Source: an uncultured Planctomycetales bacterium (GTDB lineage Bacteria; Omnitrophota; Gorgyraeia; Zapsychrales; Zapsychraceae). Taken from it: 64,000 nucleotides of DNA. The stretch is taken from NCBI GenBank assembly GCA_964630825.1, contig CAZVZR010000006.1, forward strand, positions 911-64,910, written 5' to 3'. The notes beneath the pieces are model-generated. The model did no database searches. It saw nothing but the letters and a program-made list of their open reading frames with translations, and had not been told where the DNA came from. Shown in pieces: positions 48,994 to 53,496 of this stretch. Each line of letters opens with the position of its first letter. The stretch's first letter is position 1. A program made the translations under genes and the position numbers.

Positions 48994-51900
48994 ATGAAAA
49001 TTTCTGAAATCAGTATCAAACGCCCTGTTTTAGCCTCAATGATGAGTTTGGGGTTAATTCTTTTTGGTGTTATTGGTTTAACACGGCTGCCCGTGCGTGA
49101 ATTGCCGGACATCGACCCGCCTATCGTTAATATCACGACGGTATATCCCGGGGCAAGCGCCAGTGTCGTCGAAGCCCAGGTTTCCGAAGTCCTTGAAGAA
49201 TCGCTCGCGTCTATTGAAGGGATACGTACTCTTACCAGCGAATCACGTCAGCAGGTAAGTTCCATTACAATTGAATTTGATTTATCGAGAAGCATCGATG
49301 TGGCTGCTCAAGATGTACGCGACCGTGTTTCGCGCGTAAGAGGGCGGTTGCCCGATGATATTGAAGAGCCGATTGTTGCCAAACAAGATGCCAATGCCCA
49401 GCCGGTTTTATGGATCGCGCTTTATAGTGAACGATATTCAACGCTGGAATTAACGAATATTGCCGAGAATACAATTAAAGATCGTTTACAAACGGTCAGC
49501 GGTGTTAGTTCCGTAATTTTCGGCGGGGCAAAACGTTTTGCCATACGTATCTGGTTAGATGCGCAGAAAATGGCAGCTCGCGGGATTACTGTTTTGGATG
49601 TTGATCAGGCTCTTAAGAAACAAAACGTGGAACTCCCCAGCGGCCTGATTGAAAGTTGGGAACGCGTACTTTCCATTGAAACCCGTGGGGAATTAAAAAC
49701 ACCGGAGGAATATAACAATCTGGTTATTAAACAGGATGGCTCAACTTTTATCCGTCTCTCTGATATCGGCCATGCCGTGATAGGCGTTGAAGATGAAAAA
49801 GCCATTGCGCGGTTTAATTCCAAACCTTGTGTTGGTATCGGGGTTATTCGTCAGTCAAAAGCCAATACGATTGAAGTGACTAAGAATGTAAAGAAAGAGA
49901 TTGAAAACCTCCGCCCGCTTTTACCGCAAGGAATCGAGATTGCCTTTCCTTACGATGAGTCGATATATGTTGAACATTCCATTAAAGAAGTGTGGATGAC
50001 GCTGTTTATTGCTTTTGCATTGGTTGTCCTTTGTATTTTTATTTTCCTCCACGATGTTCGTTCCACTTTCATCCCAACGATAACTGTTCCTGTTTCTATC
50101 ATCGGTACATTTGGCATTCTTTACGCGTTAGGGTTCTCAATCAATATTATTAGTATGCTTGCTTTTGTCTTGGCTATTGGGTTGGTGGTGGATGATTCAA
50201 TTATCGTTCTCGAGAATATTTACCGCCATATTGAAGAAGGGATGAAACCATGGGATGCTGCCGTTAAAGGGATGCAGGAAATCGGTTTCGCTGTTATGGC
50301 GACGACCGTGGCACTCGTCGCTGTTTTCTTGCCGATGGCGTTTCAGACAAGCATTACTGGGCGCTTATTTATTGAATTTGCCGTCGCACTTTCAATGTCG
50401 GTTATCATTTCTGCCTTTGTTGCCCTGACGTTAAGCCCGATGCTTTGCTCGCGGATTTTAAAAAACACCGGCCATGCTAAAAAAGGGTTGCTGGGATTTT
50501 TTGATTGGTTTTTAACGGGTGTTATTGAGCGGTACGGTCGTGCTTTGAAGTGGTCATTGGATTATCCAGTTTTTATTGTCATTATTGCACTTATCAGTAT
50601 TGGGTTAAGCATCTTTTTCTTTTCAAACTTGGAAAAAGAATTCATGCCTGATGAGGATAAAGGAAGGTTATTGTGTTTTGCTTTGGCTCCGGAAGGCTCA
50701 ACCAGTGAATATACCGATCGGATGGCACGTAAGATGGAACAAATTATTTCTAAGGTTCCTGAAGTGGAAGGGTATTTTACGGCCATCGCACTGGCGCGAG
50801 GTAGCCCCGGCCAGACTTCACAAGGGCTGGCTTTTATCCGCCTTAAAGAAGACCGTAAGCGCCATTTACGCGACATCGTCGGTGGCCCGACAGGATTAGC
50901 GGCGCAATTTTTTAGTAATGTGGAAGGGGCGTTTGTTATCCCGATTGTCCCGAAATCTATCGGCCGTGGTTTTTCTCAGCCGTTTCAACTGGTTGTTCAA
51001 AGTCAGGATTTGATAAAATTAAATAATTACGCCCAGGAGTTGACGAACAAATTACGTGCGGCGGGATATTTGATGAATGTGCGCACCACCTTTGAATTAA
51101 ATAAACCTGAATTACGGGTGAACATTGACCGTGACCGGGCCGGAGCGCTTGGCGTTAACGTGGAAGACATTTCCCGCACAATGCAAATTCTCTTCGGCGG
51201 ATTGGATCTGTCCAAGATTAACATTAAAGGGAAAGAATATAAAGTTATTGTTCAATTAGAGCGCACATCACGTTTGGCACCGGCGGATTTGGAGAAAATT
51301 TATATTCGCAATATTCGCGGTGAACTCATTCAGCTCGATAATGTTATCAGTCATGAAACGGGCGCCGGGCCCAGCGCTATTAACCATTATAACCGTTGGC
51401 GTTCAGCCACGATTGAAGCAACGCCGATGGGGGTTTCTTTGGGTAAAGCCATGGAGAAAACGCTGGATATTGTTAAAGCAGGTCTACCCGACGGGATCCG
51501 GTATGAATGGACGGGTGATACCCGTGATTTGGTTGAGTCAAGCAGCCAAATTTATTTTGTCATGATTCTGGCCGCGATTGTTATTTACATGGTTTTGGCG
51601 GCCCAGTTTGAAAGCCTTATTCATCCGTTGACGGTTATGATGACTATTCCTCTGGCAGCGTTCGGGGCATTCGGCGGCCTGTGGATTATGAGTTTAATCA
51701 GTAAGGCCGGCTGGTTCGGGTTTATTCAAGGGATGAGTTTAAACTTGTTTAGTCAAATTGGTATGATTTTATTGTTCGGATTGGTTACGAAGAACGCTAT
51801 TCTTTTAGTCGATTTTGCCAATCGTAAAGTGGCGGAAGGAAAATCGGCCAAAGAAGCGATGCATATGGCCGGGCTTATCCGATTGCGTCCTATTTTGATG

Positions 51901-52101
51901 ACCGCTTGCGCAACGGTCATTGGGATTATGCCGATTGCCATCGGCTTTGGGGCAAGCGGAGAAGCTCGTCGGCCGCTTGGCGTTGTGGCCGTTTTTGGTA
52001 TGGCCACCAGCACGTTTTTAACTTTATTTGTTATTCCCGTTGTGTATGTATTTTTCAGCAATGTTTTTCATCGGCGAAAACAAAGCCATGATAGCGGATC
52101 T
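48994..52101 (+). CDS. RND multidrug efflux permease (AcrB/HAE1-like). The ORF has no stop codon and runs in-frame into the next gene.
   Basis: 12-TM AcrB architecture (…RPVLASMMSLGLILFGVIG…; porter domains; …VVYVFFSNVFHRRKQSHDSGS). The first 1036 codons match a typical RND length. Confidence 0.85.
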
Positions 52102-53496
52102 ATGGCCAAACTTATCTTGATTATCGGTTTTATTATTCCTTTATTATTTAATGGTTGTGCTTTTAGTTCGCTGTATCACAAGCCCGATGTATCTTATAGT
52201 TCTGCCTGGAAAAATTATAATGAAGCGATCCCTAATTTTTCTATGCCGGCAAATTGGTGGGAAATTTTTCATGATGAAACATTAAATCATTTAGAAGAAA
52301 CAGCCCAGGCCAATAATCAAGATTTGGCAATTGCGATGGCCAATGTAGATAAAGCACGTGCGTTAGCCAGGGTTGAGGAGGGAGATCTTCTTCCTCAAGC
52401 TGATTTAAACCCATCTATTGTGCGCTCACGAACTTCAGGTAATGCTTCCACATTCGGACAGTCTTCGCGCATAACCACTTCGTATAAAATCCCATTGGAT
52501 TTAAGTTATGAAATTGATCTTTGGGGCCGTGTTCATCGGGCATTTGCCGCCGGGCATGCAGAGGCTCAGGCCCAAGCAGCGGCGTACGGCATAGTTTTTT
52601 TAACACTTAGTGCCGATGTCGCCCGTAATTATTTTGAAATCGGTGCTGCGGATGCTGAAATTGATGCCGTCAAAGGGGCGGTTGATTTGCGGCAAAAAGC
52701 GGTTGAGATGCTCCAAGCCCGTTTTCAACAAGGCATCAGCAGCGAACTGACCCTTTTTCAAGCACAGACTCAGTTATCAAAAGCGCAGGCGGATTTAGTT
52801 GATGCTCAGCGTCGGAGAGAAAATTTAGTCAATTCTTTGGCTGTCTTGTGCGGGCAAAACGCCAGTGATTTTACTTTACCTCAAGAAGTGCTTAAAACAG
52901 AAGTGCCGCAGATCCCGGTTGGAATTCCGTCAACGATTTTAGAAAATCGCCCGGATATTATGGAAGCGGAAAAACTCATTGTTGCTGAAAACGAACGTTT
53001 GGGGATTGCGCAAATGGCTTATTTCCCTTCGATTAAATTAACGGGCAGTGCCGGTTATTCCAGCGTTGACTCTGGGAATCTCCTTGATTGGGAGAGCCGT
53101 GTCTGGTCCATCGGCCCGTCGGTAAGCCTGCCGATTTTTAACGGGGGGAAATTAAAAGCCGAAGAAAAAGCGCAGAAAGCAGAATATGAAAAAGCATTAG
53201 CCGAATACAAAAAAAGAGTTCTGACGGCTTTTAGCGAAGTGGAAAACGCTTTGGCCGATATAAAAATGCGCCAGCAGCAATTGCATGCTCAGGGAGAACT
53301 TTTGAAGGCCGCACGCCAAGCAGCCGAAATTTCTATCCAGCGCTATAAGGAAGGATTAGTGACATTTTTGGAAGTTATTGATACCGAACGTTCCCGCCTG
53401 GATGCCGAACGTGACACGATTCAAATCCAATCAGAGGCATTAATATCAACGGTACATCTCATTAAAGCTTTAGGCGGCAACTGGCCAAGGCTATAA
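52102..53496 (+). CDS. efflux outer-membrane factor lipoprotein, NodT/OprM family, in-frame continuation of the RND ORF
   Basis: Begins at internal Met with a lipoprotein signal, MAKLILIIGFIIPLLFNGCAF (lipobox LFNGC). OMF repeats and a conserved C-terminal LIKALGGNW. Confidence 0.8.
   Translation: MAKLILIIGFIIPLLFNGCAFSSLYHKPDVSYSSAWKNYNEAIPNFSMPANWWEIFHDETLNHLEETAQANNQDLAIAMANVDKARALARVEEGDLLPQADLNPSIVRSRTSGNASTFGQSSRITTSYKIPLDLSYEIDLWGRVHRAFAAGHAEAQAQAAAYGIVFLTLSADVARNYFEIGAADAEIDAVKGAVDLRQKAVEMLQARFQQGISSELTLFQAQTQLSKAQADLVDAQRRRENLVNSLAVLCGQNASDFTLPQEVLKTEVPQIPVGIPSTILENRPDIMEAEKLIVAENERLGIAQMAYFPSIKLTGSAGYSSVDSGNLLDWESRVWSIGPSVSLPIFNGGKLKAEEKAQKAEYEKALAEYKKRVLTAFSEVENALADIKMRQQQLHAQGELLKAARQAAEISIQRYKEGLVTFLEVIDTERSRLDAERDTIQIQSEALISTVHLIKALGGNWPRL

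Follow-up and report, generated by a model that had tools for sequence, protein, structure and literature searches.

In-frame fusion of an RND permease and an outer-membrane factor, conserved in Omnitrophota and joined by an internal, putatively cleavable lipoprotein signal peptide

Tripartite efflux pumps of the MexAB-OprM and AcrAB-TolC type combine a periplasmic adaptor, a permease of the resistance-nodulation-division (RND) family and an outer-membrane factor (OMF). Both the N- and the C-terminus of RND permeases are located in the cytoplasm, as established by structures of AcrB. We analysed a stretch of 64,000 nucleotides (the window) of contig CAZVZR010000006.1, from an uncultured bacterium placed in the Omnitrophota by GTDB, which contains a locus of this type with adaptor, permease and OMF all present in the usual order, probably under a MarR regulator. 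The RND part is of full length and carries the proton-relay motifs, the OMF has the OprM/OprN/CmeC fold, and the adaptor resembles MexA and AcrA in being a lipoprotein. Unlike in MexAB-OprM and AcrAB-TolC, the permease and the OMF are encoded by one open reading frame (ORF), with the signal peptide of the OMF at an internal position, after 12 transmembrane helices (TMs).

A parallel is found in FbcH from Bradyrhizobium japonicum, a cytochrome b/cytochrome c1 polyprotein that is reportedly cleaved at an internal signal peptide, in work from about 1989-1991 attributed to Thöny-Meyer and colleagues. As in the window protein, the first part is a polytopic inner-membrane protein with a cytoplasmic end, which a complete internal signal joins in frame to a partner that faces the periplasm. 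Cleavage of FbcH into two subunits in a 1:1 ratio is said to be proven, whereas cleavage of the window protein is a prediction. FbcH is processed by signal peptidase I (SPase I) and both of its products reside in the inner membrane, whereas the window protein has a lipobox for signal peptidase II (SPase II) and a product that would be bound for the outer membrane. In OpuA and GlnPQ, substrate-binding domains are fused to ABC permeases and remain uncleaved. They resemble the window protein in that an extracytoplasmic partner, which is elsewhere a separate lipoprotein, has become part of the ORF of the transporter, but they work as fusions in a single membrane, while the partner in the window protein belongs in the other membrane and the cleavage motif is conserved. 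The conservation of this motif argues for separation, unlike in OpuA and GlnPQ.

The ORF at positions 48994-53496 of the forward strand runs unbroken through 1500 codons, without a stop at the junction, and its translation is matched exactly by an entry of the NCBI set (P0001) in a whole-protein search. Residues 3-1021 align with positions 1-1020 of the 1021 positions of the Pfam profile ACR_tran (PF00873; 986.8 bits, cutoff 28), and residues 1050-1495 match the NCBIfam profile NodT (TIGR01845), with 396.7 bits in the fusion and 401.1 bits for the OMF alone (cutoff 210.05). Pfam OEP matches the OMF part in two stretches, corresponding to two repeats. The translation and these matches bear out the original prediction, made from the DNA letters, that an RND permease and a NodT-type OMF lipoprotein share one frame of 1500 codons. 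The RND part is AcrB-like, and HAE1-like by best match, but the scores remain below the cutoffs of the curated HAE1 subfamilies (NF033617, 1036.3 versus 1250; TIGR00915, 803.9 versus 940.35), and we therefore name it as an AcrB-like RND permease without a substrate class.

A hydropathy scan places the 12 RND helices at their canonical positions (TM1 at about residues 12-30, TMs 2-7 at 333-544, TMs 8-12 at 852-1018). TM1 and TM7 are each followed by a gap of about 300 residues, corresponding to the two large periplasmic loops. The motifs GLVVDD, LVTKNAILLVDFAN and IRLRPILMT are present in the translation and near-invariant in an alignment of 58 sequences (alignment A2); we take the motifs VVDD, VTKN and RLRPILMT to represent the proton-relay residues D407/D408 (TM4), K940 (TM10) and R971/T978 (TM11) of AcrB. 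Beyond the 12 RND helices there is an extra hydrophobic peak at residues 1040-1058. The junction around Met1037 (nucleotide 52102) reads ...VYVFFSNVFHRRKQSHDSGS-MAKLILIIGFIIPLLFNGCAF..., and in its wider context …IPVVYVFFSNVFHRRKQSHDSGS-M1037-AKLILIIGFIIPLLFNG-C1055-AFSSLYHKPD…. The features of the operon are as follows.

43257-43709, + strand: MarR-family regulator (Pfam MarR, 6.8e-13), probably the regulator of the operon
47881-48987, + strand: periplasmic adaptor (membrane fusion protein, MFP) of the RND pump (TIGR01730 RND_mfp, 286.8 bits, cutoff 94.9)
48994-53496, + strand: single ORF for RND permease, internal lipoprotein signal peptide and NodT-type OMF
48994-52056, + strand: RND (AcrB-like) permease domain, residues 1-1021, with 12 TMs (Pfam ACR_tran, hydropathy, motifs)
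52069-52110, + strand: basic cytoplasmic linker, putative n-region of the internal signal, H1026-K1039, HRRKQSHDSGSMAK (alignment)
52102-52104, + strand: non-conserved Met1037 within the basic linker
52111-52149, + strand: putative hydrophobic core of the internal signal, the '13th TM', L1040-F1052 (hydropathy, AlphaFold2 helix 47-66)
52147-52158, + strand: lipobox F-N-G-C (Cys conserved in fusions)
52156-52158, + strand: predicted Lgt lipidation site, Cys1055
52155/52156, + strand: predicted LspA cut, G1054/C1055
52156-53493, + strand: predicted mature OMF (OprM/NodT type), C1055-L1500 (TIGR01845, OprM match, AlphaFold2, Foldseek)

The adaptor gene lies directly upstream of the fused gene, and its product has an N-terminal lipobox (…LLLAVIIVVGC) of the conventional lipoprotein type.

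The RND-OMF fusion is genuine, evolutionarily conserved and old. Among the best 120 database relatives from the whole-protein search, 82 are RND-OMF fusions of about 1500 residues, with identities from 84% down to 47%; we counted as fusions proteins of at least 1400 residues (1400-1560) with both Pfam domains. The named fusions in this set are from metagenome-assembled genomes (MAGs) of Candidatus Omnitrophica/Omnitrophota (up to 79% identity). Altogether, more than 80 sequence clusters have the fusion, drawn from assemblies of four sources (NCBI, ENA, JGI and Logan). In nine further, independent assemblies (L081-L088 and L090), the same in-frame fusion was confirmed in the DNA, and the translations match the database records exactly. 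The gene order is MarR-MFP-RND::OMF in seven of these loci (L081-L086 and L088), and the distance from the end of TM12 to the lipobox Cys ranges from 26 to 39 residues among the orthologues, varying in whole codons only. Automatic annotation in the databases names the fused genes 'permease' or 'outer membrane subunit', or gives them a double name (JGI). In one of the loci (L082, GCA_016214285.1), the adaptor upstream of the fused pump is broken into two ORFs of 138 and 216 residues (2925-4004), which could be a frameshift, a pseudogene or a MAG assembly error.

More distant fusions were found by an exhaustive search of representatives at 50% identity with residues 701-1500. In this set, about 19 representatives are full-length fusions, 18 with an identity of 27-33% to the query, and the named members of their clusters include Acidobacteriota/Bryobacteraceae, Kiritimatiellota bacterium B12222, Muribaculaceae, Prevotella and Sphingobacterium sp. 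SYP-B4668. The fusion from SYP-B4668 (P0190/P0295; RefSeq WP_270090608.1, 5.4-Mb genome) has the internal lipobox …VLFGSC…, and the one from B12222 (P0144; WFB35000.1, 4.43-Mb genome) has …PFLGGC…. Since these isolate genomes carry the architecture, cleavage is directly testable in culturable systems.

Conservation at the junction is concentrated on the signal peptide. In the alignment of the 82 fusions, 72 have a Cys at the lipobox column, which in 70 of the 72 is part of a G-C pair, mostly as L-x-G-C. In alignment A2, this Cys is the sole invariant residue over about 70 positions between a tyrosine in TM12 and the WW motif of the OMF. Throughout the fusion family, the region before the Cys consists of an uncharged stretch preceded by a basic segment with a net charge of +1 to +9 (median +4). 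From the last charged residue to the Cys, the distance in 70 of 72 fusions lies within 13-19 residues (the median is 16, which is also the value of the window protein), a core length of signal-peptide size, unlike that of a stable membrane anchor. None of the 72 fusions has Asp at position +2 after the Cys. Asp at +2 is the inner-membrane retention signal of Escherichia coli, and the rule is E. coli-centric; its lack in the fusions is a suggestive hint of outer-membrane sorting. In the window protein, the net positive n-region, the short hydrophobic core and the lipobox of a lipoprotein precursor are thus all present. The signal is located about 1025 residues into the chain and not at the N-terminus, the usual position in lipoprotein precursors, and is not preceded by a conserved internal start codon; this position is what makes the case unusual.

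Ten more distant fusions (group B: P0090, P0093, P0098, P0102, P0109, P0111, P0113, P0115, P0118 and P0119) have no Cys, and contain an SPase-I-like signal instead. Several have clear A-x-A sites (…PVRA|ED, …PARA|EE, …SAQA|), and AKA|ES is a further clear site of this kind among the Cys-less fusions. With their putative SPase I sites, these proteins (P0090-P0119) are the direct formal analogue of FbcH. Group B is a second RND::OMF fusion family, GC-rich and found in JGI and ENA metagenomes, to which locus L088 (4001-8581) belongs, and among its named relatives, the closest is a Lentisphaerae protein, which is unfused. In the distant set, 17 of the 19 representatives have the lipobox Cys, and the other two have an SPase-I-like signal without Cys. 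All independent fusion lineages examined thus keep a complete signal peptide of the cleavable type at the joint, and it is this signal, not a start codon, that is conserved.

The topology of the permease defines how the extra helix would be placed in the membrane. Because 12 TMs precede it and the C-terminus of RND permeases is cytoplasmic, the basic linker is expected on the cytoplasmic side, with the extra helix in an N-in/C-out orientation. Cys1055 would therefore face the periplasm, oriented as in a lipoprotein signal at the N-terminus of a chain. In alignments, it corresponds to residue 1 of two mature chains, those of OprJ (5azs) and MtrE (4mt0), and the OMF part is closest to OprM (1wp1; E=1.6e-66). 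An AlphaFold2 model of residues 990-1500 (mean pLDDT 86.6), from which we took no more than the helix boundary and the fold because it cannot separate cleaved from uncleaved protein, contains TM12, a short loop, a helix that ends exactly at the Cys, a coil of 32 residues and an OMF protomer. The top matches of Foldseek in the PDB are OprN, CmeC and OprM (E of about 1e-28, target TM-score 0.82-0.86). The spacing between the Cys and the WW motif is 31-42 residues in the family, about as in free OprM, and no long tether has evolved between the signal and the OMF.

We hypothesize that the gene acts as a polyprotein that is cut at G1054|C1055, which would release an outer-membrane lipoprotein OMF and leave a pump with 13 TMs, and we consider this the likely reading. 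Ribosomes would produce a single chain of 1500 residues, of which the 12 RND helices would insert co-translationally in the inner membrane, with the end of TM12 and the basic linker HRRKQSHDSGSMAK staying in the cytoplasm. The segment L1040-G1054 would then insert N-in/C-out like an ordinary lipoprotein signal and bring the OMF part of 445 residues to the periplasm, where Cys1055 would be lipidated by Lgt and the chain cut by SPase II (LspA). The freed OMF would move to the outer membrane and trimerise as usual, while the signal peptide would be kept by the pump as its C-terminal 13th helix. Together with the adaptor encoded upstream, the products would form an ordinary tripartite RND pump with an obligatory 1:1 ratio of RND and OMF. 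The original prediction had held that a covalent fusion conflicts with Lol-dependent lipoprotein sorting. This conflict disappears in view of the topology: the 12 TMs and the cytoplasmic C-terminus of the permease would orient the signal N-in/C-out, like one at an N-terminus, so that SPase II could release a normal lipoprotein. The pump adaptor and other proteins in the window have N-terminal lipoboxes, and such ordinary lipoproteins indicate that the genome uses the lipoprotein pathway. Strict 1:1 co-synthesis may be the advantage of the fusion, but the fusion may equally be near-neutral, with processing hiding the loss of a stop codon.

Several points weigh against processing as proposed. 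Lipidation, cleavage and the fate of the 13th helix are what we infer from sequence for all members of the family. A literature search found no action of Lgt or LspA on a lipobox behind 12 TMs, and we assume that the enzymes tolerate it. Genes for Lgt, LspA and Lol proteins were not found among the 28 ORFs of the window that were searched with Pfam. The lipobox of the window protein, FNGC, has unusual residues at positions -3 and -2, although FxGC and LNGC recur in the family. The presence of Met1037 may allow some independent synthesis of the OMF in the window genome. Finally, the tree on which our view of fused and split genes is based (see below) is a crude neighbour-joining tree of the RND domain only, without support values.

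The start codon at Met1037 leads to one of the alternatives, which had been put forward in the original prediction. If internal initiation at nucleotide 52102 were the main route in the window genome, a normal OMF preprolipoprotein would be made and read-through would be incidental. The in-frame ATG is exactly at the expected start of the OMF precursor (MAKLILI…), both in the window and in the closest relative (L081). As had been predicted, there is no obvious Shine-Dalgarno (SD) sequence: an SD-like motif was not found in the 25 nucleotides before 52102, while such motifs are present at 29 of 50 gene starts in the window (58%; background 15.5%). This is not decisive in the operon, because the genes at 47881 and 48994 are likewise without a clear SD. 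Conservation speaks against an internal start. Met1037 is present in only two of the 82 aligned fusions, the window protein and P0002, and a comparison of the junction DNA between the window and eight orthologues (L081-L088) shows start codons at no common position and without a properly spaced SD. Locus L086 has no ATG, GTG or TTG between TM12 and the Cys, and the sole candidate starts of L084, L085 and L087 would give signal peptides without a charged n-region. Moreover, ribosomes from upstream would still read through, and the fusion that they make would still need processing. Internal initiation thus appears not to be the mechanism of the family and is unlikely to be the main route in the window genome; it could contribute there and in the closest relative, which both have the Met, with the read-through product made regardless. 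The same prediction had allowed for a single-base error that removed a stop, and had pointed to TGA TAG at 52089-52094. An artefact of sequencing or assembly could have removed the stop or shifted the frame of an ordinary two-gene operon, and RND and OMF genes are indeed often just one stop apart in such operons (for example L001, L002, L015 and L045). The TGA TAG is present in the +2 frame, as had been noted, but it carries no meaning, since stops occur in that frame at 7.6 per 100 codons throughout the ORF and the closest orthologue, L081, lacks the motif; we rejected it as a relic of an ancestral stop. The same junction, in frame and with linkers that differ by whole codons, is shared by more than 80 independent clusters from four data sources, nine further loci are confirmed in DNA (the junctions of L081-L088 were read codon by codon), and distant fusions occur also in the genome records of SYP-B4668 and B12222. 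We regard the probability of an artefact as negligible. The third option of the prediction, a genuine and odd fusion, is correct at the level of the gene.

A genuine fusion could also be permanent. The OMF would then be tethered via TM13, in a single-chain pump across the envelope or as an OMF anchored in the inner membrane with a different role. The ORF is continuous and conserved, cleavage is predicted only from the motifs, and uncut transporter fusions with extracytoplasmic domains are known, such as the substrate-binding domains on ABC permeases. However, a permanent anchor needs neither a lipobox Cys nor an A-x-A site, yet these two are at the top of the conservation at the junction across independent fusion lineages, and the hydrophobic core is short (median 16 residues including the lipobox). 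The geometry points in the same direction. Fully extended, the 31-42 residues between the Cys and the first OMF helix would reach at most about 120-150 Å, while the equatorial domain, where this segment starts in OprM, is located about 170-190 Å from the inner membrane in AcrAB-TolC and MexAB-OprM, as estimated from cryo-EM. The segment is therefore probably too short for an uncut chain to build a canonical pump. In addition, fused and split states interchange in evolution. We consider permanent tethering quite improbable. A variant in which an uncut single chain bridges both membranes, with the Cys as an Lgt-lipidated but unprocessed hinge, in bacteria that include many ultra-small Omnitrophota, seems highly improbable; it would require the periplasm to be unusually narrow or constricted in places.

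Split genes within the family offer a comparison with the fused state. The original prediction had suggested looking for a stop at this junction in orthologous loci. Such stops exist in a small minority, for example in the Omnitrophica locus L089 (GCA_020632515.1), but these genes nest among the fused ones. Locus L089 shares the operon order MarR-MFP-RND-OMF with the fused loci, its RND gene is nested in the fused clade, and its OMF has a signal and lipobox of the same kind as the window protein. In contrast to the window, the RND gene (P0078, 1040 residues) ends in a short hydrophilic tail without a 13th TM, …NKRKRKNK-TAA, followed by a spacer of 17 nucleotides and a separate OMF of 486 residues in another frame with its own ATG, which starts with MKSILMSFMVFLFLTGC. 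Unfused RND tails are hydrophilic in general and do not have the 13th helix. In the neighbour-joining tree, the fused genes form a large, deep clade with a few split genes nested inside (P0078 and P0075; P0114 within group B), and a few fused genes are found among the split ones (P0060, P0062 and P0065). The states thus seem to switch repeatedly, as far as this crude tree can tell; such switching is to be expected if the mature proteins are the same in either state. An alignment of the junction DNA of L089 and L090 did not identify the mutation that converts one state into the other, because the linker is too diverged.

Two-gene loci from other bacteria were sampled with tblastn, in a manner biased by the selection of matches for spanning the junction. 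Among the matches listed, L001, L002, L004, L015, L039, L045 and L053 were rejected as junction-spanning fusions, because they are two-gene operons with a stop. This contig scan with the junction alignment, which was dominated by generic RND motifs, gave no Omnitrophota among the matches listed. In four of the two-gene operons, RND and OMF genes lie in the same frame exactly one stop codon apart: L001 (6331-6333, Pantoea sp. B65), L002 (1915-1917, Dongiaceae), L015 (6334-6336, Sphingobacteriales) and L045 (6385-6387, Bacteroidales). These operons are one point mutation or read-through event short of the fused state, and such spacing in unrelated genomes shows how easily a fusion can originate.

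The sequences of the fusions are public, but the arrangement appears to be undescribed. Our literature searches found no natural RND-OMF fusion, no internal lipobox or internal cleavage by SPase II, and no relevant work on the envelope of Omnitrophota. The accessible part of a review of tripartite pumps (2021 Chem Rev, PMC8277102) mentions no natural RND-OMF fusion.

If the proposed processing is correct, the window protein would be the first natural case we have found of Lgt and LspA acting on a lipobox behind 12 TMs, and the first case known to us in which a polyprotein supplies two membranes, with a transporter for the inner one and its partner for the outer one. The substrate range of SPase II would be wider, which matters for lipoprotein predictors that scan N-termini only. 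Bacteria would have a natural means of enforcing 1:1 synthesis of RND and OMF, and the RND pumps would gain a 13th TM. In annotation, 'permease' and 'outer membrane subunit' should then be dropped as lone names for these genes. If the chain stays intact instead, the case would be more surprising still.

The window contains two more efflux loci. A complete second exporter (43257-47767) sits between the MarR gene at 43257 and the RND adaptor, with the following genes.

43699-45054: OMF of the second exporter
From 45051: HlyD adaptor
From 45715: ABC ATPase
From 46634: ABC-2 permease

Since relatives have the MarR gene immediately before the adaptor and the fused gene, the second exporter looks like an insertion into the RND operon, or the result of a merger of two operons. 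When the longest ORFs are taken, the starts of the ABC ATPase (45715-45746) and the ABC-2 permease (46634-46671) overlap the preceding genes by 32 and 38 nucleotides, respectively; the true starts may be downstream of these positions, or translation of the genes may be coupled.

A third efflux locus (54373-60164) lies downstream of the fused gene. Its transporter genes are led by genes for an ECF sigma factor, a zf-HC2 anti-sigma factor and a Metal_resist protein (Spy/CpxP-like).

From 55950: OMF of the third locus
From 57229: HlyD adaptor
From 58188: MacB-type ABC-FtsX transporter
60170-62242: ORF of 690 residues adjoining the third locus

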